NCBI GenBank assembly: GCA_017436525.1
Contig: JAFSCX010000045.1
Location: 17,253-81,252, forward strand
Length of the DNA: 64,000 nucleotides
Direction: 5' to 3'
From: Clostridia bacterium
Lineage (GTDB): Bacteria; Bacillota; Clostridia; Oscillospirales; QAKW01
Shown: positions 2,212 through 40,806 of the stretch, one piece after another
Layout: each line of letters starts with the position of its first letter
How positions within the stretch are numbered: the first letter of the stretch is position 1
Position numbers and translations under genes: made by a program
The notes under the pieces: model-generated
Seen by the model: the letters and a program-made list of their open reading frames with translations, nothing else
Databases searched by the model: none
Told to the model about the DNA's origin: nothing

Positions 2212-5200
2212 TTATTTGCGCAGAAGCTGCTGCAATACCCAGGTTGCATCTGCAACGGTATATTGGCCATCGGATCCAAATGCACCGATCGTATCGTTCC
2301 ATACATCGGCAGCTTCATGCAAGGTAATATTCTCGCCGTTGGCTTTCCGAAGTATGCGGATTACATCGGCAAGGGTTACATTCTTATCGCCATTGGCGTC
2401 GCCCCAAGCATAGGCTGCCACATCGATCAGATTGACCCCGCCATCGAAAGAAATGACCTCAACATTCATCGAGCCATTCAGAATGGCGGAAGAATCATAG
2501 GGGCTTACAGTCATTACGCTCTTGCCGGCAGGAGCATTCTTTGCCACCTTGAAGGGAAGGGTTGCAAAATCACCCATGCCTTCCTCAATATTTTCCGCCC
2601 AGATAAAGGCAATCTTCAATTCACCCGGGTCATCACCGACCACCTTAATCTCATAGCCGGTTGCAACTGTGTTTTCATCATCAAAATCAAAGATCGCAGA
2701 ATCATATTCAATCTTCATGACCAAGGCGTTGCCGGGGGCGACGGGAATTCCTTTCAGATTCACCTTCACCTCTACCTGCTCACCGGCATGAACCAAAGGA
2801 GCAGAAAGGGTAACGGCTGCGCCGGTGAGTGCGGGAATCTCTCTGCTATTAAATCTTCCGCAAACACACTCTTGGCGCTCCTCACCTTTCACATCAAGGG
2901 CTGGTGCTTTTACAATTTCCCATGGACCGAAGGTACAGGAATCAAAGGTATCGCTGCCGCAACGGATGCAATAATGGCGATGCTCCAGCTTTTCATCAGC
3001 TAAGGAATAGCTATATTCGCAATTCTCAACCATACCGGAACCGCAAATACACTTAATAAGATGGCTGCCGTTATCCAATTTCTCTACCTGCGTATATTGG
3101 CATTTCTCTGTAAATTCTCTGCCGCAAGCGCAGTTTTCGGCATGGGTGCCATTCCCATGATCTGCCCATTCGCCATCATGGGTGCAAAGAACCGCTTCTT
3201 CGCCCTTCTTGCAAGCGGAGCAGAACCAGCTATGGGTGGAACCATCCTCATTCATTGTATAGGTAAGGGTGCCGGTATGTCTGCAGTCTACGGAAACAGC
3301 AATTTCCACATCGGTGCCCTGCATGGTCAGGATATGATTGAATTCGCCGCTGACCAAGGCCGATCCGCTTACAACTTCAATATCGGAAATATCGTAATTA
3401 TCAACCAACACCTCAAAAGCGGCATCTCCGTTGACATATCTCTCTTCCAACGTCTCCCCGCCCAGGGTGATGGTCAGCCTGCGTACTGCATTGTCTTTAT
3501 TACCGAATACCGTCATGCCTTCCTCGTTCATGGTCCAATAAACGGGAGCTAAATCGCCATGACGATAAAAATCATTGTTCATGGTATAAGCCATGAAGCC
3601 ATTATCATATTTCCGCCGAGCAAAAGAATGGGTTCTGCTGCACTCTACGATCGCAGCAGAAGGATGGCTTGCATAGCCATAGATCAAGTGCGTACCGATC
3701 GAATAAGTGTTTTGATAGGGAGTGCTTGCAGCCGTGGTCTGGCTCTGATAGCTGCCGCCCTGGCCGATGGCTGTATTATAGCCGGCAGAAGAGCCGGAAG
3801 CCAGCAGGTTATAGCAATTATAGAACCGACCGCCGCCGTTGGAAGCATAGGCGTTCAGGCCATGAACATACTCTTCATTACCGGATACGACACCGATATT
3901 ATAGCAACCATAAAGAATACCTGCACCGCGGCCCACAATACCGCCGATACGGGATCTTGCGCCCTTATTGCTTGCATTGACCGTAAGACCGTTCCAGCAA
4001 TTTGCAATCAAAGAGCCGCTATCGGCAACGCCCGCAAAAGCACCGATACCCTGATCCTGAGAGCAAACGTCTTTGATGTTAACCGTTCCGCTGGCAAGAC
4101 CAATATTCTGAATGACACCGGTGCCTAAGTGGGCCACCAAGCCAAAGCTATTATCGAAAACGGTAGTGCCGCTTTCTGTTGAGCCGAAGCCGTTGGGGTC
4201 TGTTTGGGTTATATTAAAGTTATAGAAATTATAACCATGGCCATCTACCAGACCGTTGAAGGTAGCGCCGTAAGCCAAGGGCCATACAGCCTCATTTTCC
4301 ATATCAATGTCCCCGGCCAGATGCAGCCGCAAAGCAGCAACATCCCGAGGCACCATCTCAGTGGCATAAATCCAATCTTCCTTGCTGCTGATCAGCCAAT
4401 CGGTGAAATGATAATCTGCCAATTCTTTATAGCGGGAAATGGAAGGCAGATAGGGATATTCTGCAGAAAGTTTGCCGTTGCCGATCGCCTCTTTTACAAT
4501 GTTGAAGGCGGCAACTGCCTCATAAATCGCAACGCACTTTTCATCATCACTCGCTACATTTTGAATCTTTACCAATGCATTGCGCAAATTCTCAATGCTT
4601 TCGCCGCCTGCTTCTCCGAAGGTATCCACCAAATCCTCCGCCTCGCCCAGATGGGAAGGATCGGGGCTCACCATGGAGTAGTTTACAGTGGTATAATCTT
4701 TATCCAAGACAACAACATCGGGAGTTTCGTTATCCAGCTCATATCCCGGCAATTTGGGCAACTCGCTCAGCTGATAAGAATCATTTTTATAGCGATAGAG
4801 GCGTTCGGGGGCACCATAAATCTCCCGCCCTCTGCCGAGGCCGGAAAAATCGTCCACATATCTTTGAAGCAGAAGCACAACCGGCTTCTCGCTCTCATCA
4901 AAGGAACGGGTCAATTTCGTCTTACCGTTCTTTCCGATGGTCCAGAATGCACCGTCATCCTCGCCCAGTTTCTGAGCGCTTTCGTTCATCTGATGAGCAA
5001 TTTCGATCTTATGGAAATCCTCAGAGGGAATGCGAAGCTGAAGCTCATCCTTTACCATCGGATTGTTTGCCTCGGTATTCGCCACTTTGCTTCCCTCGGG
5101 CGCAATCCAGAATACATTTTCATACTTTGAGGCGGTTACAGTTGCATTGGAAGAGCCAATTGCGCGCGCCACATAAAAAGCGTCATCGTGAACATAGGTT

Positions 5201-7062
5201 GCGGTCGCTTCACACCAGCTGTTCTTTATGGTCAAGGTATTGCCCCAATGGCGGCCGACCAAGCCGGCATTATTATTGTCGTTTGCGGCAGATTTGGCCA
5301 TAATCCAAATCTTACCGGTAGCCGTTACATCATGGAGATACGTGCTGCCGCTCACACGCTCAACCACCAAGGAGGGATAGGTATATCCCCCGGTGGCTAC
5401 TGCTTTATAATATTGATCATAGCAGGCCTCTGCATTCTCCAAAGAGAGGTTTTTCAAAGAGCCGCCGTTGATCTCGCAGATCAATCCGCCCATGGCATTG
5501 GCTTCGACGGCAGGAAGATAGGCATAGCTCTTCCAGTTATATAGGGTGTGGTTCTTACCGTCGATATTATAATCTACAATGGTATTGGCGCCGATAGGCA
5601 CATAATAATCAACGTCGATAAGAGTGAGGTCATTCATATCCACATTATCGATAAATTGAACTTCCGCTACGCCGAAATTGCTGCTGAGGGCATTGAAGGA
5701 AGAAAAGAGCCCAAAGATAAAGAGATCATCCGCGCTTGCAATTTCCAAAGCCTCGCCGCTGAAATTCAGCACGCCGTTTTTACGGGCAGCTGCGGAAATC
5801 CGGCCAAAAAGGGCATTTTCCTTTGCCCAATCATTGCCCACTACATTCTTTGCATCGGCAGCAGGCAGCCGCTTGGCTACTACTGCATCATCCTTGATAT
5901 AAGTCAATACGGGATAGCCGGCTTCGGAATATTCATATGCCACGCTATACCCATCGGTTTGAGGATCGGAGGAAATATCTTTATTCAGCTTTTTATGGAG
6001 CTCGGAGAATTCTTCAGCAGTAAAGGAGGTAGCGCCGTCGAATGCATTTTCTGCCACAGGGCCGTCTTTCAATGCCCCATCCTTTTCCCAGCCGGGCTTG
6101 CCGATGGTATCAAGGTAGAAGTTGTTGGCACTGGTTTTGGGGATCGCCACTGCTTCCTCTTCGTCGGTCTCTTCATCTGCTTTGATCTGAACCCGCAAAA
6201 TTGCGCCGAAATAATCGGCAGAGGAGGAATCAAGGCCTTTGAAGCCATCGATCAAAGTACCCGCACTGTAGCTATTGGCAATCTGAAGGGTGCACTCTTC
6301 TTCCTGATCACCGCGCACCAGACCAACCAAACCTGCCGCGGCATTTTTATAGTTATAAACCAGCCCCAGATTGTAGCAATTGGTAAGAGTAGCCTTTCCG
6401 TCCAGCACAGTGCCGACCAAGCCGCCTGCTGCATCTCCGCCGCCACCGATGACCGTGGCTGCATTCCAGCAGTTGATCAGCTTGGTATCGCCATGGGCAA
6501 GGCCTACAACCGAGCCGGTGCGATCTGCGCCTACAATAAGACCGCTTGCAATACCTACATTCTTGATGGTGGCATTATAGCAGTTGCCGAAAAGGCCTAC
6601 GCCATAGGAAGAACCAAGATACATGTAAAGATTTGTGAAAACAAACCCATTCCCGTCGAATGTACCGCGGAAGGTATAAAAATCTTCATTGTATGTCAGC
6701 GCAGCATTTGCAGCACTATCAATGTCGTTGAGAGAAACGGCGCCGATTCCTGCAAAGGGCGTGCCGCTCATATCAATATCTTTGGCCATGGTGAAGGAGT
6801 AGCCTTCCATTTTGGTTTTTCTGGCCACCTGCTTCGCGATAATATCCATCCCTTTACGGTCGGTTACTTTATACGCTTTGATACTGCCCTTAAAACCGTC
6901 CCCGATATCAGGCAACGCCGATACATCGACAAGGCCTTTTTCGGGCACGATCTCATCATAGTTGCTTTCTGCGGCTGCAGGCAGGCAGAAGCTTGCCATC
7001 AGCGAAAGAAGCATACATACAATGGCGATAGCGGAAATCACCCGCGTCTTCTTTGTGAACAT
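2212..7062 (-). CDS. giant secreted surface protein (1616 aa) with GLUG-like repeats, a Cys/His-rich repeat region, a cohesin-like module and a C-terminal dockerin-like module
   Basis: ORF 2212..7107, trimmed to ATG 7062 (MFTKKTRVISAIAIVCMLLSLMASFCLPAAA signal peptide; AGGAGG 10 nt upstream). It carries G-L-x-G repeats (GGLVGTV, AGLVGLVRG, NAGLVGRHWG, IGGIVGRGAG). The cohesin-like segment is AVTLSAPLVHAGEQVEVKVNLKGIP...FKVAKNAPAGKSV (about 2422..2820). The dockerin-like pair is GDANGDKNVTLADVIRILRK and SDGQYTVADATWVLQQLL (about 2215..2421). Confidence 0.85.
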   Translation of the reverse strand: MFTKKTRVISAIAIVCMLLSLMASFCLPAAAESNYDEIVPEKGLVDVSALPDIGDGFKGSIKAYKVTDRKGMDIIAKQVARKTKMEGYSFTMAKDIDMSGTPFAGIGAVSLNDIDSAANAALTYNEDFYTFRGTFDGNGFVFTNLYMYLGSSYGVGLFGNCYNATIKNVGIASGLIVGADRTGSVVGLAHGDTKLINCWNAATVIGGGGDAAGGLVGTVLDGKATLTNCYNLGLVYNYKNAAAGLVGLVRGDQEEECTLQIANSYSAGTLIDGFKGLDSSSADYFGAILRVQIKADEETDEEEAVAIPKTSANNFYLDTIGKPGWEKDGALKDGPVAENAFDGATSFTAEEFSELHKKLNKDISSDPQTDGYSVAYEYSEAGYPVLTYIKDDAVVAKRLPAADAKNVVGNDWAKENALFGRISAAARKNGVLNFSGEALEIASADDLFIFGLFSSFNALSSNFGVAEVQFIDNVDMNDLTLIDVDYYVPIGANTIVDYNIDGKNHTLYNWKSYAYLPAVEANAMGGLICEINGGSLKNLSLENAEACYDQYYKAVATGGYTYPSLVVERVSGSTYLHDVTATGKIWIMAKSAANDNNNAGLVGRHWGNTLTIKNSWCEATATYVHDDAFYVARAIGSSNATVTASKYENVFWIAPEGSKVANTEANNPMVKDELQLRIPSEDFHKIEIAHQMNESAQKLGEDDGAFWTIGKNGKTKLTRSFDESEKPVVLLLQRYVDDFSGLGRGREIYGAPERLYRYKNDSYQLSELPKLPGYELDNETPDVVVLDKDYTTVNYSMVSPDPSHLGEAEDLVDTFGEAGGESIENLRNALVKIQNVASDDEKCVAIYEAVAAFNIVKEAIGNGKLSAEYPYLPSISRYKELADYHFTDWLISSKEDWIYATEMVPRDVAALRLHLAGDIDMENEAVWPLAYGATFNGLVDGHGYNFYNFNITQTDPNGFGSTESGTTVFDNSFGLVAHLGTGVIQNIGLASGTVNIKDVCSQDQGIGAFAGVADSGSLIANCWNGLTVNASNKGARSRIGGIVGRGAGILYGCYNIGVVSGNEEYVHGLNAYASNGGGRFYNCYNLLASGSSAGYNTAIGQGGSYQSQTTAASTPYQNTYSIGTHLIYGYASHPSAAIVECSRTHSFARRKYDNGFMAYTMNNDFYRHGDLAPVYWTMNEEGMTVFGNKDNAVRRLTITLGGETLEERYVNGDAAFEVLVDNYDISDIEVVSGSALVSGEFNHILTMQGTDVEIAVSVDCRHTGTLTYTMNEDGSTHSWFCSACKKGEEAVLCTHDGEWADHGNGTHAENCACGREFTEKCQYTQVEKLDNGSHLIKCICGSGMVENCEYSYSLADEKLEHRHYCIRCGSDTFDSCTFGPWEIVKAPALDVKGEERQECVCGRFNSREIPALTGAAVTLSAPLVHAGEQVEVKVNLKGIPVAPGNALVMKIEYDSAIFDFDDENTVATGYEIKVVGDDPGELKIAFIWAENIEEGMGDFATLPFKVAKNAPAGKSVMTVSPYDSSAILNGSMNVEVISFDGGVNLIDVAAYAWGDANGDKNVTLADVIRILRKANGENITLHEAADVWNDTIGAFGSDGQYTVADATWVLQQLLRK

Positions 7063-7146
7063 ATTTGCTGTTCCTCCTTTATAACTTGCCCCACCAAATA
7101 AGGGCATAAAACCCTAATAGATATAATGAGACTATTATTCGATGAT

Positions 7147-12760: not shown

Positions 12761-12968
12761 AATCTGCCTCCTTCCCCCTTGATAGGGGAAATTCCTTCTT
12801 GAGATAGTTTTAGATAATAGTATTATAGCATGCTTCTGTCTACGATTGGATAACGTCATGTTGTTTTTATTTAACACAATGTTGCTAAAACCTCGTTTTT
12901 ATACTTTTTTAATGCAATCCTTTTTTATTTCGTGTATAATAAAGAAAACGACGAATTCGGAGGAAACA

Positions 12969-14462
12969 ATGAACAAACGAGAAAGCGGCGTCTTGCTGCA
13001 TCTTTCATCCTTACACGGCCCCTACGGCACCGGCTGCTTTGGAAAAGAAGCCCGCGCTTTTATTGATTTTCTGCATCAGGCAGGCTTTAAGGTCTGGCAG
13101 GTGCTTCCTTTCTCTCTCCCCGATGAGGGCGGCTCTCCCTATAAAAGCGTAAGTGCCTTTGCGGGCAACCCTTATTTCATTGATCCGGAGCAGCTTTTCG
13201 AGCAGCAGCTCATTACGGAGGAAGAGCTGAAAAGCTGCCGCGGGACCCAGCCTTATACCGTCGATTTCCCTTGGCTGCACGCCCAGCGAACGGCCCTTTT
13301 CCATCGCGCCTATTTAAGGTGCTCCCAAGAGCTGCTGGCTCAGGTCGATCAATTTGCTTCGGAGCAGCCTTGGGCGGAGGATTTCGCCCTTTATACCGCA
13401 TTGCAGCAAAAGAGCGGCAAGGATTGGTACGATTGGGAGCCGGCGCTGAAAAACCGAGAGCCGGAGGCCCTTGCAAAAGCAAAAAGTGAATTGCGCGCAG
13501 AAATGCAAGAGATTCTCTTCATTCAATATCTCTTTTTCAGCCAATGGGCTGCTCTTAGGGCCTATGCCAATGAGCGGGGCATCCAAATCATCGGCGATAT
13601 GCCCATCTATGTATCCTTGGAAAGCGCCGATGTATGGAGCAATCGGCGTCTTTTTCAGCTGGATGATGAGGGGCAGCCTCGCAGCGTAGCAGGAGTGCCG
13701 CCCGATTTCTTCAGCGAGGACGGCCAGAGATGGGGGAATCCGCTCTATGATTGGGATAAAATGGAGCAGGAGGATTTTCTTTGGTGGCGCAGGCGTATCC
13801 GCTCTGCCCTCACCCTCTATGATCGGGTAAGAATCGACCATTTTCGCGGTCTTTCCGCTTATTGGGCAGTCCCCGCTAAAGCCGAGACTGCCAAAGAAGG
13901 GCATTGGATTCAAGGCCCCGGTATGAAACTGCTGGAGCGGCTTTTCAAGGAATTTTCACCCGATGCTCTGATCGCCGAGGATTTAGGGGTCCGCGATAAG
14001 GAGCTGGAAACCCTGCTCAAGGAAAGCGGCTTGCCGGGGATGCGGGTCTTTCAGTTTGCTTTTCCCTCCCAAGACGGCGGCCTGCATTTGCCCCATAATT
14101 ACCCCGAAAACACCCTTTGCTATACCGGCACCCACGATAATAATACCCTCCTTGCCTACCTTTGGGAGCTGCCCCCTGAGCAGCGAAGAGAAGCCTTGGA
14201 ATATTGCGGTTTTTTGGGAGAAGATTGGCAGAGCGGCGGAGCGGAAAATGCCGCTATTCGCGCTATTTTACGCTGCCTTTGGTGCTCGGCCGCACGAACG
14301 GTCGTTGTACCGGTGCAGGATCTTCTCGGCTATGGGGGCGATACCAAAATGAACCGGCCGGGCGTGGCGGAGGGCAACTGGCAATTCCGCCTTACCTCCA
14401 TCGGTTTTTCTCAATTAAATCCCGCCACCTATCGAAAATTAAACCGTATATACGAGCGATAA
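12969..14462 (+). CDS. malQ: 4-alpha-glucanotransferase (amylomaltase, GH77)
   Basis: MNKRESGVLLHLSSLHGPYGTGCFGKEARAFIDFL..., IGDMPIYV, RIDHFRG, IAEDLG and GTHDN motifs. Start trimmed to ATG 12969 with a GGAGG RBS. Confidence 0.9.
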   Translation: MNKRESGVLLHLSSLHGPYGTGCFGKEARAFIDFLHQAGFKVWQVLPFSLPDEGGSPYKSVSAFAGNPYFIDPEQLFEQQLITEEELKSCRGTQPYTVDFPWLHAQRTALFHRAYLRCSQELLAQVDQFASEQPWAEDFALYTALQQKSGKDWYDWEPALKNREPEALAKAKSELRAEMQEILFIQYLFFSQWAALRAYANERGIQIIGDMPIYVSLESADVWSNRRLFQLDDEGQPRSVAGVPPDFFSEDGQRWGNPLYDWDKMEQEDFLWWRRRIRSALTLYDRVRIDHFRGLSAYWAVPAKAETAKEGHWIQGPGMKLLERLFKEFSPDALIAEDLGVRDKELETLLKESGLPGMRVFQFAFPSQDGGLHLPHNYPENTLCYTGTHDNNTLLAYLWELPPEQRREALEYCGFLGEDWQSGGAENAAIRAILRCLWCSAARTVVVPVQDLLGYGGDTKMNRPGVAEGNWQFRLTSIGFSQLNPATYRKLNRIYER

Positions 14463-14468
14463 ATAAGA

Positions 14469-14498
14469 AGAGCTGTGAAAAAACTCACAGCTCTTTTT
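14469..14498 (+). terminator. rho-independent terminator after malQ (hairpin usable from both strands)
   Basis: AGAGCTGTGA-AAAAAAC-TCACAGCTCT followed by TTTT. On the minus strand it is followed by CTTATTTAT. Confidence 0.7.
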
Positions 14499-14514
14499 GT
14501 GTCTTATTTAATTG

Positions 14515-14670
14515 AATACTGTATTTTGAGATGGCAAAGGATTTGTTACAGATTTGCACCTGCTTTTTGCTCTTCGCCTGACGACGCCTCCACGCCGAAG
14601 GAACTTCCGCCGAATCTTTCGATGATTCCTTTCCTCGTCGCCTGCGGTCGATTTTGCAGGTCGGGCGCTT
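14515..14670 (-). ncRNA. glmS-type (glucosamine-6-phosphate) self-cleaving ribozyme-like element, not followed by glmS
   Basis: Minus strand reads AAGCGCCCGA CCTGC-AAAATCGACC-GCAGG CGACGAGG AAAGGAA TC ATCGAAAGATTCGGCGGAAG TTCCTT CGGCG... This matches the remembered glmS core blocks: A^GCGCCAGA, P1 hairpin, GACGAGG, P2.1 strand, AUCGAA..UUCGGCGGAUG, and the complementary P2.1 strand. Predicted cleavage lies between A14669 and G14668. I did not assign the 3' P3/P4 part, so the 3' boundary is approximate. Confidence 0.6.
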
Positions 14671-14703
14671 GACTTTATCCTTTCTTTTCCTCCATTGCCC
14701 AAA

Positions 14704-14732
14704 AGTATAACATTTTAACCCGATTTTGTCAA
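14704..14732 (-). promoter_or_regulatory. near-consensus sigma-A promoter driving the ribozyme-like RNA
   Basis: TTGACA (14732..14727), 17-nt spacer, TATACT (14709..14704). The predicted start is about 30 nt upstream of the ribozyme cleavage site. Confidence 0.65.
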
Positions 14733-14801: not shown

Positions 14802-15689
14802 TTAAAAAAATCCGTTGTAAACCATTTTACCGATGCAAAGAGCGGCAAAAGCCCAAATCCAAGGGCTCATCAAAGGATCTCCATAGGCCAAAGAGCGGGT
14901 AGATCGCTTGGCGATCTTGCCCTTGCCCAAGCGTTGCTCCACAACCGTCTCCAGCATTTTCAAGGTGAAAATCAAAATCAAAAAGCAGACCACAACCGTG
15001 ATAATCATGAAAAGGCGGTCCTGCAAAATATAGCGCACATAATCCTGATTTTTGGCAATATACAGCGCCACACCATTATTGATGGCATGGGCAAGCACCG
15101 CCGGCCATACACTCTTGAAAATCAAGGTCAATACGCCGTAGCAGACTCCCGCCACGAATAAAGAGGGAATATGCATGGGATTGGTATGGAAGAGGGCAAA
15201 GATCATCGCTGTCAGCAACACCCCTACTGTCGGCCCGTATTTTTCATACTCCCCTTGAGTCAGCCCCCGCAGCAAAAGCTCCTCCGATAGGGCAGGGAGC
15301 AGCACCGAGGTGAAGAAAAGAGCCGCCGCACTTTTTCCGCTCAAATCCACAATGGAATTTTCAAAAGATACATGAAAGACCGCCTTAAAAAGCGCATTGG
15401 TCCCCAAATTAATCAAGCTGCAGATCAAGCAGACGGAAAGGCCGAAAAGCAGGATAAACAGCCAATATTTCGGATGAACCATCTTTAATCGCAGGGCATG
15501 GCGCAGCTTATAGCGATGGGTTTTGGAATAGATCACCATCGGCAAAATATAGATCAATATGTAGATCAGCACCGTAAGCCCTGCGCCCATCTTCGGCAGC
15601 CATTGGCTTACAATGCTGAGCCCCAAAAGCATACCAAGGATCACCACCAGCAGGGCGGAAATTTCCTTGGAAACATCTCTTCTGCTCAT
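14802..15689 (-). CDS. CPBP family intramembrane glutamic endopeptidase (CAAX protease/Abi family)
   Basis: Polytopic membrane protein with EELLLRG, FALFH and HAINN motifs. Confidence 0.8.
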   Translation of the reverse strand: MSRRDVSKEISALLVVILGMLLGLSIVSQWLPKMGAGLTVLIYILIYILPMVIYSKTHRYKLRHALRLKMVHPKYWLFILLFGLSVCLICSLINLGTNALFKAVFHVSFENSIVDLSGKSAAALFFTSVLLPALSEELLLRGLTQGEYEKYGPTVGVLLTAMIFALFHTNPMHIPSLFVAGVCYGVLTLIFKSVWPAVLAHAINNGVALYIAKNQDYVRYILQDRLFMIITVVVCFLILIFTLKMLETVVEQRLGKGKIAKRSTRSLAYGDPLMSPWIWAFAALCIGKMVYNGFF

Positions 15690-16234
15690 AGCATTACAAT
15701 CCCCCGCCGCAGCTCCTCTGCCTTCTCGCGGCCCGCAAGGCGCGCCACCAAGGCAAGGGAAAATTCAAGGGCAGTCCCTGCCCCGCGGGAGGTGATAAAG
15801 GGGCCATCCTCCACGACAGCGTCCATGGAATGAGCGCAGCCCAAAAGCGGCTCCATACCGGGATAGCAGGTCGCCACTCTTCCTTCCAGCAGCCCCAACC
15901 CGCCAAGGACAGAAGGTGCGCCGCAAATGGCCGCAATATCCAGCCCTTCGGCGACCGCTTTTTTCAAAAGGGCTGCCACCCGCTCATCCTTGCCTAAATT
16001 TTCATAGCCGGGATAGCCGCCGGGCAGAATCACCATCTTCATTTTTTCTTCTTCTAATTCTTCAAAAAGAAGATCGGCCACCACCGAAACACCTCGGGCG
16101 CCGGTTACGACGCGCTCTTTTTCTATGGAGACGGTAACCGTCTCTATCCCTGCGCGGCGCAGAAGATCCACAGGCGCCAGCGCCTCCACCTCTTCAAAGC
16201 CTTCCGCCAAAAGGGTATATACAATGGTTCTCAT
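15686..16234 (-). CDS. DJ-1/PfpI family protein
   Basis: 182 aa. VILPGG and AAICGAPSVLG (nucleophile-elbow Cys) motifs. 4-nt overlaps with both neighbours. Confidence 0.8.
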   Translation of the reverse strand: MRTIVYTLLAEGFEEVEALAPVDLLRRAGIETVTVSIEKERVVTGARGVSVVADLLFEELEEEKMKMVILPGGYPGYENLGKDERVAALLKKAVAEGLDIAAICGAPSVLGGLGLLEGRVATCYPGMEPLLGCAHSMDAVVEDGPFITSRGAGTALEFSLALVARLAGREKAEELRRGIVML

Positions 16235-17094
16235 TTCATTACCTCCGCGGTATATTTCATCAATAACTCCATAGGGCGATAGCTAAGCTTTGCCTTCCGC
16301 AAGCCTTCATCCCCCGTATCGTCCTCCCGATTGATCCATCGAATTGCGGGATCCAGCCGCTTTACCAGCTCTCGATTGACCATTGGATAAGCGCCCCGAA
16401 GATCTGCATTGGCCTTTTCCACATGGACGCAAAAGCCCTCTTTTCCCATCGGCTCGCCATAAGAAAAAGCGCAGGGAGCGCCATCGGCATAAAGGATGAT
16501 TCCGAAAAATCCAAGCTCCTTAAAATGGCGAAGCCCTCTCCGCACAGCGCACCCTTCCCGCATCAAAGAAGACTCTGCGCCGCAATCGTTTTCGGCGCAC
16601 CACCAATCATTGAAGCGGGCGGCATCCTCCAAGGTCCCATCATCCAGGAGCTTGACCTCCCAGCGGCAGTTATTTTCAAAGAAATTAATATGATTGCGCT
16701 TGGCGGCAAGCTTTTTCCCCTTTAGGGTTTCCAGCGCTTTTCGATCGTAAATATAATCGGCGCCCGCTCTTCGCTCCTTGAAGGAAAAGCGCCCCTCAAA
16801 CTGCTCTTCCAGCCATTTTTTATAAGGCTCATCAATACCGATCAGCCGCTCCGCTCCCTCTGCCAAAAGCCCTTCGATCAACTCTTTTCGCTGAGGGCCT
16901 TGGGGCGCGGCGATCATGCCGTGCCATTTTGATACAAAGGTATTTTTATAGATTGCAAGCTGCGCATCGGCAACTTTTGCCCAGCAAAAGATATTGCCGA
17001 AGGTCTGATCACACATCCTGACCCCTTGCTCCGCTACAATGCGATCTACCGCCTCTTTTTGAGAGAGGCTCGGCTGCTCAAAATTCAAGATCAT
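16231..17094 (-). CDS. DUF2156 (MprF C-terminal/LPG_synthase_C-like) domain protein
   Basis: MILNFEQPSLSQKEAVDRIVAEQGVRMCDQTFGNIFCWAK... is the typical opening of stand-alone DUF2156 proteins as I recall them. 287 aa. Confidence 0.55.
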   Translation of the reverse strand: MILNFEQPSLSQKEAVDRIVAEQGVRMCDQTFGNIFCWAKVADAQLAIYKNTFVSKWHGMIAAPQGPQRKELIEGLLAEGAERLIGIDEPYKKWLEEQFEGRFSFKERRAGADYIYDRKALETLKGKKLAAKRNHINFFENNCRWEVKLLDDGTLEDAARFNDWWCAENDCGAESSLMREGCAVRRGLRHFKELGFFGIILYADGAPCAFSYGEPMGKEGFCVHVEKANADLRGAYPMVNRELVKRLDPAIRWINREDDTGDEGLRKAKLSYRPMELLMKYTAEVMK

Positions 17095-26794: not shown

Positions 26795-27352
26795 ATGCCC
26801 GCTATCCCAATCTTCGCCCAGATCCTCAGCATCATCGCCATGACCATCGCCCTGCTTTCCTTTCAGCAAAAGACGCAAAAGAGGATTGTACTTTTCCAAT
26901 TTTGCTCTTCCTTTCTCTTTGCAGTGCATTTTCTTTTATTGGGCGCCATCACCGGCGCACTCTTAAATTTCATGGCCGCAGGCCGTGCGCTGATCTATTC
27001 CAAGCGAGATCAAAAATGGGCCGCTTCCCCCTTTTGGATCCTTCTTTTTTCGATTCTGCCCTTTGGGATCTACGGCGCAAGCTTTGCCTTTTTCGGCATC
27101 GCGCCCACGCTTTCCAATCTTCTGCTGGAGCTGCTCCCCACCCTCGGCATGATCTCCACCACCATCTCCTTCCGGATGAAGCAAGCGGCGCAGGTGCGGC
27201 TGTTTTCCCTGATCAGCTCTCCCCTTTGGTTAATTTATAATATTTTTAATTTCTCCATCGGCGGGATCCTGACCGAAAGCTTTTCCTTAATTTCCATCTT
27301 GATCGGCATCCTGCGATTAGATCTTAAAAAAGAACAAAGAAAAAGCAGGTAA
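26795..27352 (+). CDS. YgjV family inner membrane protein
   Basis: MPAIPIFAQILSIIAMTIALLSFQQKTQKRIVLFQ... is a YgjV-like pattern. Start trimmed to ATG 26795 (AAGGAG RBS). The stop TAA lies inside the terminator stem. Confidence 0.65.
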   Translation: MPAIPIFAQILSIIAMTIALLSFQQKTQKRIVLFQFCSSFLFAVHFLLLGAITGALLNFMAAGRALIYSKRDQKWAASPFWILLFSILPFGIYGASFAFFGIAPTLSNLLLELLPTLGMISTTISFRMKQAAQVRLFSLISSPLWLIYNIFNFSIGGILTESFSLISILIGILRLDLKKEQRKSR

Positions 27353-27372
27353 CTTCGGTTACCTGCTTTTTT
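27344..27372 (+). terminator. terminator of the YgjV-like gene (hairpin H1)
   Basis: AGCAGGTAAC-TTCG-GTTACCTGCT followed by TTTTT. It has the same stem as H2 (27514..27537) and H3 (27684..27707), but the tetraloop is reverse-complemented. Confidence 0.7.
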
Positions 27373-27710
27373 GGTGATCCATCGGAGACTCGAACTCCGG
27401 CAATGCTCGCTTCGCGCCTTGCCGAAAAAATGGCCGACTCGTTCGCCGCTAAAGCGGCAACCACTCGCCATTGGCCAAAGGGTTCGGAGTTCTTTTGATT
27501 TTCATATTAAGAAAGCAGGTAACCGAAGTTACCTGCTTTTTTGGTGATCCATCGGAGACTCGAACTCCGGCAATGCTCGCTCCGCGCCTTGCCGAAAAAA
27601 TGGCCGACTCGTTCGCCGCTAAAGCGGCAACCACTCGCCATTGGCCAAAGGGTCCGGAGTTCTTTTGATTTTCATATTAAGAAAGCAGGTAACCGAAGTT
27701 ACCTGCTTTT
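27371..27710 (-). repeat. two tandem 170-bp units (27371..27540 and 27541..27710) downstream of tRNA-Lys, each carrying a copy of the tRNA 3' end
   Basis: Each unit holds an exact copy of the last 29 nt of tRNA-Lys (CCGGAGTTCGAGTCTCCGATGGATCACCA, minus strand). It also holds a GC-rich insert of about 110 nt that ends in an inverted 17-nt copy of tRNA positions ~38-54 (GAACTCCGGACCCTTTG), and a terminator hairpin. The units differ at 2 positions. Confidence 0.85.
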
Positions 27711-27711
27711 T

Positions 27712-27787
27712 TGGTGATCCATCGGAGACTCGAACTCCGGACCCTTTGATTAAAAGTCAAATGCTCTGCCAACTGAGCTAATGGATC
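27712..27787 (-). tRNA. tRNA-Lys (anticodon UUU)
   Basis: GATCCATTAGCTCAGTTGGCAGAGCATTTGACTTTTAATCAAAGGGTCCGGAGTTCGAGTCTCCGATGGATCACCA. Acceptor stem is GATCCAT/ATGGATC, the T-arm is CGGAG-TTCGAGT-CTCCG, the anticodon loop is CTTTTAA, and the CCA is encoded. Confidence 0.9.
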
Positions 27788-36495: not shown

Positions 36496-38895
36496 ATGAC
36501 ACAGCAAGAAATCAAAGAAAGATTACAACGGGTCGTAGCAGAAAAATTTGCTTGCGACATTGAAAACGCCACCACACGGCAGATGTATGAAAGCGTCGTA
36601 GCCTTGGTTACCAAGGAACTCGGCAAGCGCAGAAAAGATGCTTCCAAAATGATCAAGGAGCAGCAGGCCAAGCAGGTCTACTATATGTCGATGGAATTTT
36701 TGATCGGCCGCTCCTTAAAAAATAATCTCTATAATATGGGCATTGAAAAGGAGGTCCGTGAGGTTCTTCAATCCTTCAATACCGATTTGGAGGAGCTCTA
36801 TGCCATGGAGCCCGATGCAGGCCTCGGCAACGGCGGTCTGGGCAGATTGGCCGCCTGCTATCTGGATTCCCTCACCGCCTGCAATTATCCTGCCGTCGGC
36901 TTTTCCATTCGCTATGAATTCGGCATCTTCAAGCAGGTCATCATCGATGGCTGGCAGATGGAATTCCCCGATAACTGGCTGGAGCTTGGCGGCGGTTGGC
37001 TGGTGCCCCGCCCCGATGAAGCGCAGGAGATTCATTTCGACGGTCAGGTCGAAGAAATCTGGAGCAAGGATGGTCTCAAGACCGTTCATAAGAATTATTA
37101 TAAGGTATTGGCTGTGCCCTATGATTTGATGATCTCGGGCCATGATTCCAAGATTGTCAATAAGCTGCGTCTTTGGGGCGCCAAGAGCCTTGAGAATTTC
37201 GATATGTCCCTCTTCTCCCGCGGGGAGTACCTCAAGAGCTGTGAGGGAGATGCCAAGGCCGAGGCCATCAGCCGCGTCCTTTACCCTGCCGACGATCATG
37301 AGGAAGGCAAAAACCTTCGCCTGCGCCAGCAATATTTCTTTGTAAGCGCTTCTTTGCAGAATATCCTGCAAAGCCATATCAAAAATTATGGTTCCTTGGA
37401 TTCTCTGCCCGATAAGGTCGTTATCCATATCAACGACACCCATCCCGCTCTTTGCGTACCCGAGTTGATGCGTCTTTTGATGGATGAGCATGATTATTCT
37501 TGGGATGATGCATGGGATATCACCTGCCGCACCTTGGCTTATACCAACCATACCGTTATGAGCGAGGCGCTGGAAAAATGGTCGGTGGGCCTTTTCTCCG
37601 GCAGATTGCCCCGTATCTATACCATTGTGCAAGAAATCAATCGCCGCTTCTGCGAGGCGGTCTATCGGGATCATCCCGAAAAGCGGGACGCCATCGACCG
37701 CATGGCAATTATCGGCGACGGCATGGTGCGGATGGCCAATCTTTGCGTAGCCAGCTGCTATAGCGTCAACGGCGTTTCTGCGCTCCACAGCGATATTCTC
37801 AAGGCCGATCTTTTCAAGGATTACCATGAGATTTATCCCAATAAGCTGACCAATGTTACCAATGGTATCGTTCACCGCCGCTGGCTTTGCGAATCCAACC
37901 CTTGGCTTACCGATATGCTTCGCGAGCTGATCGGCGATGGATTTATCAAGGATGGCGCTCAGCTGGAAAAGCTGCTGCAATTTAAGGACGATCCCAATGT
38001 CCTCTCCCGCCTGCCCGAGATTAAGAAACAGAATAAGCTGCGCCTTGCCGCCTATATTGAGCGGACCGCAGGCATTAAGGTCAACCCCGATTCCATTTTT
38101 GATGTGCAGGCCAAGCGCCTTCATGAGTATAAGCGCCAGCTGCTCTGCGCTCTTTATATCTATGATCTTTATCGTCAGATCAAAAAAGAGGGCAAAAAGA
38201 TCTATCCCCATACCTTTATCTTCGGCGCGAAGGCCTCTGCCGGCTATGTCATGGCCAAGGAGATTATCCGCTTTATCTGCGCCCTCGGTGATATGATCAA
38301 TAATGATCCCGATGTGGGCGATATGCTCAAGGTGGTCTTCCTTTCCGATTATAAGGTTTCTCTGGCAGAGATTCTGATCCCCGCCGCCGATGTGAGCGAG
38401 CAGATTTCTTTGGCAGGGAAGGAAGCAAGCGGTACCGGCAATATGAAATTCATGATCAACGGCGCGCTGACCATCGGTACCTTGGATGGCGCCAATGTGG
38501 AGATCCATCAGCAGGTAGGCGACGACAATATGTTCCTCTTCGGCCTCACCACCCCCGAGGTCAATCAATGGAAGGCCGATGGCTATTGCCCCGATCAGCT
38601 TTATCGCAATGATCCCCACTTAAGAGACCTTCTGGATTCCATTCTGAAAGAAGGAATCGGTGGAAAGAGCTTCGAATCCATTGTCCGCTATCTGATCGGC
38701 CCCGATCCCTATATGGTTCTTGCCGATTTCAAGGCCTATAGCGAGGCGCAGGCCCGTATCGAGGAAACCTATAAGGATCAAGAGCGTTGGAGCAGAATGT
38801 CCCTGACCAATATTGCAAAGGCCGGCATCTTCGCTTCCGACCGCGCCGTTACCGAATACGCCGAAAACATTTGGAATACCAAACCCATCAAATAA
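36496..38895 (+). CDS. glgP: glycogen/maltodextrin phosphorylase (GT35)
   Basis: 799 aa. GNGGLGRLAAC and the pyridoxal-phosphate site EASGTGNMKFMINGA. Confidence 0.95.
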   Translation: MTQQEIKERLQRVVAEKFACDIENATTRQMYESVVALVTKELGKRRKDASKMIKEQQAKQVYYMSMEFLIGRSLKNNLYNMGIEKEVREVLQSFNTDLEELYAMEPDAGLGNGGLGRLAACYLDSLTACNYPAVGFSIRYEFGIFKQVIIDGWQMEFPDNWLELGGGWLVPRPDEAQEIHFDGQVEEIWSKDGLKTVHKNYYKVLAVPYDLMISGHDSKIVNKLRLWGAKSLENFDMSLFSRGEYLKSCEGDAKAEAISRVLYPADDHEEGKNLRLRQQYFFVSASLQNILQSHIKNYGSLDSLPDKVVIHINDTHPALCVPELMRLLMDEHDYSWDDAWDITCRTLAYTNHTVMSEALEKWSVGLFSGRLPRIYTIVQEINRRFCEAVYRDHPEKRDAIDRMAIIGDGMVRMANLCVASCYSVNGVSALHSDILKADLFKDYHEIYPNKLTNVTNGIVHRRWLCESNPWLTDMLRELIGDGFIKDGAQLEKLLQFKDDPNVLSRLPEIKKQNKLRLAAYIERTAGIKVNPDSIFDVQAKRLHEYKRQLLCALYIYDLYRQIKKEGKKIYPHTFIFGAKASAGYVMAKEIIRFICALGDMINNDPDVGDMLKVVFLSDYKVSLAEILIPAADVSEQISLAGKEASGTGNMKFMINGALTIGTLDGANVEIHQQVGDDNMFLFGLTTPEVNQWKADGYCPDQLYRNDPHLRDLLDSILKEGIGGKSFESIVRYLIGPDPYMVLADFKAYSEAQARIEETYKDQERWSRMSLTNIAKAGIFASDRAVTEYAENIWNTKPIK

Positions 38896-38902
38896 TAAAC
38901 CC

Positions 38903-38940
38903 ACAATCCCGCAGATCCAATCTGCGGGATTGTTCTTTCC
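38903..38940 (+). terminator. rho-independent terminator after glgP
   Basis: ACAATCCCGCAGA-TCCAA-TCTGCGGGATTGT followed by TCTTTCC. Confidence 0.65.
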
Positions 38941-38959: not shown

Positions 38960-39231
38960 CAACACAATTCATTTGTGTTACCTGTCTCAGAAGAAGCTTC
39001 CAACACAATTCATTTGTGTTACCTCATTCCAAGAGAACCTCTCAACACAATTCATTTGTGTTACCCGTCTCTAAAGAGACTATCAACACAATTTATTTGT
39101 GTTACCTCATTCCAAGAGAACCTTTCAACACAATTCATTTGTGTTACCTGTCTCAAAAGAGGCTTCCAACACAATTCATTTGTGTTGCCCCATTCCAAGA
39201 AAACCTCTCAACACAATTCATTTGGGTTGAG
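38960..39231. repeat. array of 7 palindromic 23-nt repeats at alternating 41/42-bp spacing (83-bp higher-order unit x3.3)
   Basis: CAACACAATTCATTTGTGTTACC starts at 38960, 39001, 39043, 39084, 39126, 39167 and 39209 (the last copy is degenerate). The core is AACACAA-TTCAT-TTGTGTT. Spacers alternate between type A (TGTCTCAGAAGAAGCTTC-like) and type B (TCATTCCAAGAGAACCTCT-like). Confidence 0.9.
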
Positions 39232-39265
39232 GAAGTGAACAGTTTGTAAAATCAAGGCAAGGCGG

Positions 39266-39294
39266 TTGCAAAAGGCGGGAGATTATGGTAAGAT
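39266..39294 (+). promoter_or_regulatory. putative sigma-A promoter of the second CPBP protease gene
   Basis: TTGCAA, 17-nt spacer, TAAGAT, 35 nt downstream of the last palindrome and 28 nt upstream of ATG 39322. Confidence 0.45.
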
Positions 39295-39321: not shown

Positions 39322-40323
39322 ATGATGGAGCAAGGTTTTCATCCCCATTTCTTTTTACCGCCGGAGCAAGATCCGATTGTGCGGAGAAGAGAAAGAAAAA
39401 ATTTTTCTCGTATTTTCATTTCGCTCTGCCTCTATATCCTGCTGGCCACCTTTCTTCAAAACGCCCTCACCTACGGAGCGGCAACATTCTTTCCTGCATT
39501 TTATAAAAGCGAGGCTTTTCTTTGGGTCTCTTATATCGTGCCATCCTATCTGATCGCAATGCCCCTGATTTGGCTGATGCTCTCGGCTGTGCCGAAAAAA
39601 GTGCCGGAAAAGAAGCGTCTTTCTCCTCGGGAAGCGATTCTTTTCTTCTCCATTTCTTATGCATTTGTCTATATGGGCCAGCTTATCTCCAACTATCTTT
39701 CAAAGGTGCTGAAGCTGGTTAAGGGCAATGAAATTCATGAGCCTCTGCAGCAATATATGGAAAATTTTTCACCCCTCATGATCCTTGTTGTCATGGTCAT
39801 TCTTGCCCCCATTTTTGAAGAGTTGCTCTTCCGCAAGTTGATAATTGATCGTCTTCTGCCCTATAGCAAGCGGCTTGCCATGGTCGTAAGCGGCTTGGTC
39901 TTCGGAATAATTCACGGCAATTTTCAGCAATTTTTTTATGCATTCTTTGTGGGGATTATCTTCGGCTATGTCTATATTAAGACCGGGCGGCTGATTTATA
40001 CTATCCTCATGCATATGATCATCAATTTCAACGGTTCATTTGTTGTCGATTCCTTCCGTTCATTGATCAATAGCGAATCAGCCCTTTCCAATTCCATTAA
40101 TCCCTGGCAGCTTCTCTCAAGCCTTTATAACAGCGGAATGTTTATTTTGGTGGTAGCCGGAATGATCCTCTTTATCCTCAACATAAAATCCTTCCGCATG
40201 AAAGAGAATGAGGAGCAAGGCCTTCCTCTTAAAACCCAATTTGAGCTTGCCTTCAGCAATACCGGCATGATCCTCTTGCTGATTCTCACAGGCTTTACCT
40301 TCATCACAAATATAATTATATAG
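39322..40323 (+). CDS. CPBP family intramembrane glutamic endopeptidase
   Basis: Polytopic. EELLFRKL, FGIIHGN and HMIINF motifs. AAGGAG RBS. Confidence 0.8.
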   Translation: MMEQGFHPHFFLPPEQDPIVRRRERKNFSRIFISLCLYILLATFLQNALTYGAATFFPAFYKSEAFLWVSYIVPSYLIAMPLIWLMLSAVPKKVPEKKRLSPREAILFFSISYAFVYMGQLISNYLSKVLKLVKGNEIHEPLQQYMENFSPLMILVVMVILAPIFEELLFRKLIIDRLLPYSKRLAMVVSGLVFGIIHGNFQQFFYAFFVGIIFGYVYIKTGRLIYTILMHMIINFNGSFVVDSFRSLINSESALSNSINPWQLLSSLYNSGMFILVVAGMILFILNIKSFRMKENEEQGLPLKTQFELAFSNTGMILLLILTGFTFITNIII

Positions 40324-40335
40324 GAGGTTTTTTCC

Positions 40336-40806
40336 ATGATTGAAATTACCATGAAAGACGGCGGCGTGATCAAGCTGGAGCTTTATCCCGAGAAGGCGCC
40401 CAAAACAGTCGCCAATTTTGAAAAGCTGGTAGGAGAAGGCTTTTACGATGGCCTTACCTTCCATCGAGTCATCAGCGGCTTTATGATCCAGGGAGGCGAT
40501 CCCTTAGGCAACGGCATGGGCGGAAGCGATGAAAACATCCCCGGCGAATTTGCCGCCAACGGATTTCCCAATCCCATCCGCCATGAGAGAGGCGTCATCT
40601 CCATGGCACGGGCGCAAGATCCCAATTCTGCCAGCAGCCAATTCTTTATCATGCATGCCGACGGCTTCTTCTTAGACGGGCAATATGCCGCCTTCGGCAA
40701 GGTGGTAGAAGGAATGGAGACGGTCGATAAAATCGCCGCAGTGGCCACTAATCCTTTGGATATGCCTACCACTCCTCAAGTAATTGATACTATTAAAATT
40801 GTTTGA
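40336..40806 (+). CDS. ppiB: peptidyl-prolyl cis-trans isomerase, cyclophilin type
   Basis: FHRVISGFMIQGGDP, SMARAQDPNSASSQFFI and FGKVVEGMETVDKI motifs. Confidence 0.9.
   Translation: MIEITMKDGGVIKLELYPEKAPKTVANFEKLVGEGFYDGLTFHRVISGFMIQGGDPLGNGMGGSDENIPGEFAANGFPNPIRHERGVISMARAQDPNSASSQFFIMHADGFFLDGQYAAFGKVVEGMETVDKIAAVATNPLDMPTTPQVIDTIKIV

Follow-up and report, generated by a model that had tools for sequence, protein, structure and literature searches.

Why should seven copies of one palindrome stand in a regular row between glgP, the glycogen/starch phosphorylase gene, and a gene for a CPBP/Rce1-like intramembrane protease on the chromosome of an uncultured Clostridia bacterium? The array in question, seven 23-nt units CAACACAATTCATTTGTGTTACC on the + strand at 38960..39231, lies in a 64,000-nucleotide stretch of contig JAFSCX010000045.1 (assembly GCA_017436525.1), hereafter the window. 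A first-pass annotation had likened its geometry to that of an iteron, centromere-like or cooperative-operator array or, alternatively, if transcribed, of a sponge RNA. Comparison with related genomes leads us to a different answer, about which our confidence is evenly poised: the array is a lineage-specific, copy-number-variable tandem amplification (a minisatellite or variable-number tandem repeat, VNTR, of BOX- or BIME-like type) of a palindromic unit adjacent to a terminator.

The array itself is well defined. A pattern search with AACACAANNNNNTTGTGTT, allowing up to two mismatches, returned seven matches in the window, all on the + strand within 38961-39228 (starts at 38961, 39002, 39044, 39085, 39127, 39168 and 39210), where 0.07 would be expected by chance; seven matches were reached in 0 of 100 shuffles. 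From start to start, the copies of AACACAA-N5-TTGTGTT are 41, 42, 41, 42, 41 and 42 bp apart, and the 23-nt units begin at 38960, 39001, 39043, 39084, 39126, 39167 and 39209. Tandem Repeats Finder describes the same sequence both as 3.2 copies of an 83-bp period (89% matches) and as 6.5 copies of a 42-bp period. The number and spacing of the copies given by the first-pass annotation are thereby borne out, as is its 83-bp unit with two alternating spacer types: 18-nt A-type spacers (TGTCTCAAAAGAGGCTTC-like) take turns with 19-nt B-type spacers (TCATTCCAAGAGAACCTCT-like), and the two types agree at 10 of 19 aligned positions, about 50%. Among the palindromes, copy 4 has a TTTAT loop, copy 6 a GCC flank and copy 7 TTGGGTT.

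Nor is the array a product of assembly, because the 426-bp glgP-CPBP intergenic sequence is 100% identical across seven independent assemblies, whose contigs match the window at 99.97-100% identity throughout; all seven represent a single clone, so this identity speaks for the array being real and for nothing beyond that. Open reading frames (ORFs) that run across the array start inside glgP in another frame, and we rejected a coding reading because 41, 42 and 83 bp do not preserve frame as a set and the ORFs differ in a relative with an array of its own (L001). A hairpin within the A-type spacer (GTCTC-AAAA-GAGGC) was likewise discarded, as it is not conserved among copies or genomes.

The evidence that carries our reading comes from the orthologous locus in related genomes, which we retrieved through homologues of the CPBP protein and of GlgP. 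One relative (L035, about 82% nucleotide identity to the window in glgP) holds a single palindrome, CCCCAAATCATTTGGGG, followed by GATTTTTT. Another (L029, about 83% nucleotide identity) holds two, ACCCAAACCATTTGGGT and ACCCAATTCATTTGGGT, 24 bp apart, the second of which is followed by GCCATTCCAAAA, similar to the start of the B spacer. Since part of the B spacer (CCATTCCAA) is already present 3' of the palindrome in L029, the array unit grew from local sequence. Three palindromes are found in L022 (about 90% nucleotide identity to the window and about 95% to L001), at least three in L023 (99.7% identical to L022), and at least one in L024 (71% amino acid identity in CPBP), where the contig ends within the array. 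The window has seven, and L001, which is 95.3% identical to the window over 7.5 kb, has eleven, nearly all of A type at a 41-bp period and with an internal multi-unit duplication. No palindrome is present in L026, L030 and L036-L039, where glgP or the CPBP gene has other neighbours, or in three GlgP relatives (81-85% identical) with a different downstream gene.

These comparisons show that a single or double palindrome is the older state, from which closely related lineages reached 3, 7 and 11 copies by expansion. The order of internal units varies among lineages, with the first and last units kept, and the 41/42-bp and A/B alternation, together with the 83-bp super-unit, is private to the clone of the window. 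The last, promoter-proximal copy, CTCAACACAA-TTCAT-TTGGGTTGAG (39207..39231, + strand), is a palindrome with 10-bp arms and one A.G mismatch, which folds as (((((.(((.....))).))))); it is kept in the window, L001, L022, L023 and L024, and is probably the ancestral one. On the basis of this copy-number series, we regard the array as a recent, labile expansion of an older single element rather than as a conserved architecture. The scaffold proposed by the first-pass annotation finds no support, given copy numbers of 1, 2, 3, 7 and 11, a clone-private 83-bp unit, a distance to the promoter that is not conserved, no partner genes and no sign of an origin or terminus in the strand skew. The related suggestion that all sites face one side of the helix holds approximately for the window, where the mean spacing of 41.5 bp corresponds to 3.95 helical turns, and in L001 the mostly 41-bp period lets the phase drift by about one full turn along the array.

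In the course of events that we propose, an ancestral palindrome would have stood alone, 16-33 nt past the bidirectional glgP terminator, probably acting there at the level of DNA or of the transcript 3' end; the version in L035, with its T6 tail, resembles a back-up terminator or insulator hairpin. Units would then have been gained and lost by slipped-strand mispairing or unequal recombination between the 41/42-bp repeats, while hairpin-mediated template switching by the polymerase, perhaps together with weak selection on the stem-loop, would keep the arms complementary and flip the loop. The main effect of the extra copies would be a wider gap separating the glgP terminator from the CPBP promoter; they would modulate expression at most and be largely neutral. 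Recent duplication in tandem has left the scaffold-like regularity behind as a by-product. Among known repeats, the pneumococcal BOX elements, with their tandem 45-bp boxB modules, and the MIRU VNTRs also differ in copy number between related strains (PMC1315331, PMC3049150), and the array shares with them its intergenic position, structure-forming tandem units of about 40-45 bp and variability among close relatives. BOX elements are, however, dispersed over many loci and bounded by boxA and boxC ends, whereas the array is found at one locus in 64 kb, without terminal modules and without sequence similarity to BOX. We therefore file it with intergenic palindromic-unit VNTRs as a general kind, under no named family.

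Several points weigh against this reading. The sequences of all the relatives were assembled from metagenomes, and such assemblies can misjudge how many copies a short repeat has. The palindrome is more conserved than the spacers and six of the seven window copies are perfect, so that a protein or structural requirement may act on every copy. Every array keeps a unit of 41-42 bp, close to four helical turns, and selection for phasing could be an alternative cause of this constancy. Slippage is a step that we infer from the sequences, and the role suggested for the ancestral palindrome is proposed from its position alone, the T tail being present in the L035 version only.

How strongly, then, is the palindrome itself constrained? 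Within the window array it is more constrained than the spacers, as the first-pass annotation had argued: when units of the same spacer type are compared, differences fall on 4 of 138 positions in the 23-mer against 20 of 111 in the spacers (Fisher p = 6e-5), and orthologous loci add compensatory stem substitutions. In an alignment of 15 distinct palindrome variants, from which we also built a covariance model, the inner three stem pairs (C-G, A-T and A-T, that is, CAA/TTG) and the CAT of the loop are invariant, and in the four outer pairs both partners change in concert (A-T to C-G, C-G to T-A, and A-T to G-C or C-G). The covariation score is 0.236; none of 500 shuffles attains it (0.104 +/- 0.022), and slid controls do not exceed 0.105, a contrast to be read with the caveat that the variants had been selected for being palindromes. 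The core CAA-NN-CATTTG is confined to palindromes in 132 kb of sequence from the clade, apart from one degenerate array copy and one site in a promoter of an XRE-family gene in L002, with about one occurrence expected by chance. Against a purely selective explanation, an A.G stem mismatch is found in 5 of the 11 copies in L001 and in 1 of the 7 in the window; constraint is relaxed in internal array copies.

A mutational route to the same pattern is available. The whole 19-mer is inverted within unchanged flanks in copy 1 of L022, and again between two 97-bp repeats of L002. Template switching between the arms of an inverted repeat is known to yield both homogenised arms and inverted spacers (PMC8604942, PMC8794818), and the hairpins described under quasipalindrome correction and spacer inversion match ours in having arms made complementary by simultaneous changes and a loop in both orientations. 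Taken together, the inversions and this documented process mean that the palindrome could persist with little or no selection. Template switching is nevertheless a mutational mechanism rather than a functional class, and it accounts for the upkeep of the palindrome, not for its amplification.

Outside the orthologous locus few copies of the element were found. The exact 23-mer occurs in just 2 of 185,579 species-representative genomes, both Eubacteriales metagenome-assembled genomes (MAGs) with one contig each, L001 carrying the orthologous locus and L002 a different one. Run unfiltered, the covariance model recovers all seven window copies at 33-40 bits, its next best match in the window scoring 11 bits (E = 0.8); it and the pattern search find no further copy in the 64 kb, and on about 62 kb of related loci it returns known sites only. 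The array is thus not the common dispersed REP-like (repetitive extragenic palindromic) element that the first-pass annotation had said would undo its proposal. That annotation could name no repeat family, and neither can we: an Rfam check gave no match to the array at the gathering threshold and nothing credible up to E = 10, the best sub-threshold match being rliI (20 bits against a gathering score of 45). A BLAST search of the array against plasmids and phages in distant mode gave no match. Matches of 19 or 20 nt in IMG/VR and JGI metagenomes were single and in unrelated contexts (a phage coding sequence, and longer palindromes in AT-rich genomes), and we treated them as chance. One such unrelated AT-rich metagenome contig (L010, about 3390-3520, equivalent to L012) has the 19-mer at the centre of a palindrome with 12-bp arms, TTGACAACACAA-TTCAT-TTGTGTTGTCAA, amid TTGACAACAC direct repeats and further dyads whose clustering resembles that of operators or iterons; this palindrome is probably unrelated to the window element.

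In the second MAG, L002, a unit matches the window unit at 28 of 30 nt, asymmetric flanks included, in the opposite orientation relative to the terminator. Against one locus in the 64-kb window, L002 has two, neither homologous to glgP-CPBP, at which the unit occurs four times, in both orientations and beside a terminator every time. A 97-bp direct repeat (6248-6350 and 7006-7110) brackets a gene pair encoding a DUF6809-like protein and an XRE-family helix-turn-helix protein, and each 97-bp module consists of a terminator hairpin, GTACAA-ATGAA-TTGTAC and AACACAA-loop-TTGTGTT. Adjacent units in L002 have different outer arms, ACACAA and GTACAA, each perfectly self-complementary, and because these arms differ yet stay complementary we favour pairing, as a hairpin in single-stranded DNA or in RNA, over read-out by a dimeric protein. 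The 9-10 nt between the two palindromes of the module have diverged, and the loop of the second palindrome is inverted between module copies. In module copy 1, flanking sequence lengthens the second palindrome so that its stem measures 17 bp. Two TCATT-N6-AATGA dyads lie in the gene pair's divergent promoter, and one of them agrees with the palindrome core at 12 of 13 nt (CAAGTCATTTGT).

A bidirectional-looking intrinsic terminator stands before the first palindrome in the window, L029, L035 and L002, with 16-33 nt between its stem and the palindrome, while the nearest palindrome to the -35 element of the CPBP promoter lies 49, 59 or about 135 bp from it, a distance that is not conserved. The palindrome thus goes with terminators, not with the CPBP promoter, and persists in either orientation, which argues against both a classical operator and an RNA that depends on its loop sequence.

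The alternative that withstands the evidence best, though we consider it unlikely, is an array of operator or activator sites, in which a dimeric protein would bind each 19-bp double-stranded palindrome cooperatively, on one face of the helix and about four turns apart, copy number tuning or insulating the promoter shared by the CPBP gene and the peptidyl-prolyl isomerase (PPIase) gene behind it. The perfect 7-5-7 dyad is indeed better conserved than the spacers, unit length is held constant in all arrays, 36 bp separate the end of the array from a conserved promoter downstream, and inversion of the 19-mer within fixed flanks leaves a double-stranded site unaltered; moreover, the 28/30-nt identical unit at unrelated loci of L002 adjoins a small XRE-family regulator gene. 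Set against this are the variable distance to the promoter just described and relatives that have the same conserved promoter, a different upstream gene and no palindrome. The differing but complementary arms of L002 are awkward too, as is the fact that conservation peaks in the asymmetric centre, contrary to the usual pattern of dimer operators. The dyad is broken in about half of the L001 copies, and a Pfam search of all long ORFs in the window found no transcription-factor gene other than sigA. The unit is not known to fit the Rex, CcpA cre, Spo0A box, TnrA, Fur, ARG box, CopY/BlaI, WalR or parS/NBS consensus sequences.

An array of transcribed hairpins, produced by read-through from glgP or by an unannotated - strand RNA ending at the bidirectional terminator, with 7-bp stem-loops serving to stabilise a 3' end, to prevent read-through or to sequester an RNA-binding protein, seems to us rather improbable. 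The compensatory stem changes with conserved closing pairs and loop suit such a role, and as RNA the unit hairpins are stable (-6 to -12 kcal/mol), the array folding far better than shuffles on both strands (z = -7.9 and -4.9). A consensus scan places the terminator hairpin on the - strand, the L035 palindrome carries its T6 tail like an intrinsic terminator, and units in L002 lie past the stop codons of - strand genes but ahead of the terminator that serves these genes. The same scan, however, finds no promoter-like site on either strand between 38500 and 39800, and on the + strand a 14-bp terminator hairpin precedes the array. Both orientations of the unit are seen, with respect to the terminator (window against L002) and to its own flanks (copy 1 of L022), which would turn the loop from UUCAU to AUGAA; hairpins in the spacers are not conserved, and nothing in Rfam corresponds. 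The sponge RNA offered by the first-pass annotation is weakened by the two orientations of the unit, and the array has neither a promoter nor a terminator of its own. A more speculative proposal, to which we give only a small chance, joins structure to regularity: the CAA-(T/A)(T/C)CAT-TTG hairpin would be the recognition element of a structure-specific DNA- or RNA-binding protein of this Eubacteriales clade, many copies of which the phased array would load beside the CPBP-PPIase promoter, making copy number a heritable tuning knob. A domesticated HUH-type enzyme or a terminator-associated factor could be such a binder.

The chance is slimmer still that the unit belongs to a low-copy mobile family akin to REPs or to miniature inverted-repeat transposable elements, in which an HUH/Y1-type enzyme that recognises hairpins, its gene lying elsewhere, would mobilise a unit of at least 30 nt, preferentially to sites beside terminators and with the formation of BIME-like clusters. 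REPs are short extragenic palindromes at the 3' ends of genes, and their BIME clusters have alternating spacer motifs and variable copy number (PMC2817692); the window array likewise stands 3' of a gene near a terminator, with alternating spacers and variable copy number, and the nearly identical units with their asymmetric flanks at non-homologous L002 loci speak for this reading. But REPs exceed 100 copies per genome, alternate in orientation, have RAYT genes associated with them and bear a GTAG/CGTC tag, and we found none of these features for the array in the sequence searched. All 7 window copies and all 11 copies in L001 are direct, and an inverted core is seen only in copy 1 of L022; no GTAG/CGTC tag flanks the units, and the window encodes no transposase, Y1 type included. 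The scarcity of the 23-mer, the lack of further copies in the window and the related loci, and the presence of one or two copies in the same place in relatives of 82% identity, which points to vertical inheritance, tell against mobility as well.

A sopC-type centromere, an iteron origin or a CRISPR-like array is contradicted by our tests and has next to no standing, in spite of a regular repeat-spacer layout and a geometry close to that of F sopC, because the 64 kb contain no parA/parB or other par gene and no rep, dnaA or cas gene, the context is chromosomal and housekeeping with uniformly negative GC skew, plasmids and phages show no similarity, and relatives carry one or two copies. Of known systems sopC is the closest in geometry, being made of 12 direct 43-bp repeats, each with a 16-bp inverted repeat (PMC3177203), where the array has direct repeats of about 42 bp, each with a short one. 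It adjoins sopAB on a plasmid, however, and is bound by a ParB-family protein, whereas the array is chromosomal, without partition genes, variable in copy number and single in relatives, and so differs from sopC in every aspect of context. Iteron-type origins have an adjacent initiator gene, an AT-rich unwinding element and a switch in strand skew; the window shows no rep or dnaA gene near the array and no GC-skew switch. CRISPR arrays have unique spacers of about 26 nt or more and cas genes or a leader; partly palindromic 23-nt direct repeats at regular spacing recall them, but the spacers here are 18-19 nt, of two recurring and related types, and the window has no leader and no cas genes.

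The immediate surroundings of the array are as the first-pass annotation had described, with the glgP terminator on one side and the CPBP gene on the other. The glgP gene (36496..38895, + strand; Pfam PF00343, E = 0) is the last of a glgC/D-glgA-glgP cluster 5' of the array. Its terminator is an inverted repeat at 38903..38933 with 14-bp arms and a 3-nt loop; it appears bidirectional, with an A-rich run before it and TTCTTT after it, and the consensus scan calls the hairpin on the - strand. Equivalent bidirectional terminators are present in L029, L035 and L002. On the other side, the CPBP/Rce1-like gene (39322-40323, + strand; Pfam PF02517) is followed by a cyclophilin-type PPIase gene (40336-40806, + strand; Pfam PF00160), a pair that is retained in relatives.

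The TTGCAA-17-TAAGAT promoter that had been suggested for the CPBP gene (39266..39294, + strand) holds up well. It is of sigma-70 type, comprising a -35 TTGCAA at 39266-39271, a 17-nt spacer and TAAGAT at 39289-39294 within an extended -10 (TGgTAAGAT, 39286-39294). It scores below the threshold of the consensus scan, and we support the call despite this because it is conserved in nine relatives, whose alignment gives the consensus TTG(C/A)AA, 17 nt and TGnTA(A/T/C)(G/A)AT. The same alignment reveals an upstream box, GAACAGTTTGTAAAA (39237..39251, + strand), 14-16 bp 5' of the -35. Its consensus AAAC(A/G)nnTTGTAAA is kept among relatives whose CPBP proteins are just 41-56% identical, and the box is found in L026, L029, L030, L035, L036 and L039, in four of which (L026, L030, L036 and L039) there is no palindrome. 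We assign the box to the CPBP promoter and not to the array, on whose presence it does not depend; it could be an UP element, or else a site for a regulator or other factor.

Two other promoter candidates were considered and set aside. A sigma-54 -24/-12 promoter at AGGCAAGGCGGTTGCA (39256-39271) was rejected because its GG is not conserved in L024, while the sigma-70 -35 and extended -10 are conserved in nine relatives. A divergent - strand promoter using the conserved TTGTAAA box as its -10 fails the consensus scan and is unsupported, since the box is found with the CPBP promoter also when the gene upstream possesses its own promoter, as in L026. In two of the more distant relatives (L026, 3820-4000; L036, 620-835) the CPBP-PPIase operon is divergent from htpG, whose promoter region contains a perfect CIRCE element, TTAGCACTC-N9-GAGTGCTAA.

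The remainder of the window is ordinary chromosome, with sigA-dnaG, addAB, RNase J, ackA, pit/phoU, rhaA and a cohesin-domain protein gene, and its GC skew, negative throughout without a switch, indicates neither an origin nor a terminus. Some features deserve mention in their own right. A full-length glmS ribozyme (RF00234, 84 bits; 14523-14680, - strand) is followed by no glmS gene. It has a near-consensus promoter of its own (TTGACA 14732-14727, 17 nt, TATACT 14709-14704, - strand) and, within the region 14462-14732, runs into a terminator shared with a convergent GH77 4-alpha-glucanotransferase gene (12846-14462, + strand), so that this orphan looks like a stand-alone ribozyme transcription unit. 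Directly upstream of it, in the region 14802-17094, a second CPBP/Rce1-like gene (14802-15689, - strand) forms an apparent operon with a DJ-1/PfpI gene and a gene for an LPG_synthase_C-domain protein. In the region 27342-27787, a 170-bp tandem repeat of 2.3 copies, 97% identical, adjoins tRNA-Lys(UUU) (27712-27787, - strand). Each unit combines a terminator hairpin and a duplicate of the final 28 nt of the tRNA with about 110 nt of unrelated, structured-looking sequence; Rfam finds nothing there besides the tRNA itself, and the units could be integration remnants at the tRNA or genes for tRNA-like small RNAs. Finally, a 1,631-aa ORF at 2212-7107 (- strand), with a C-terminal cohesin domain as its single Pfam match, may encode a scaffoldin-like surface protein.

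The array would gain greater importance only if a protein or RNA partner of the conserved hairpin exists. If it is the tandem amplification that we favour, the locus would provide a natural series of 1, 2, 3, 7 and 11 copies, leading from a single terminator-adjacent palindrome to a regular array, and a small bacterial case in which hairpins are maintained and loops inverted in a manner compatible with template switching. Its superficial mimicry of centromeres, iterons and CRISPRs would also be a caution for genome scans. In practical terms, the array could serve as a strain-typing VNTR for this uncultured lineage.

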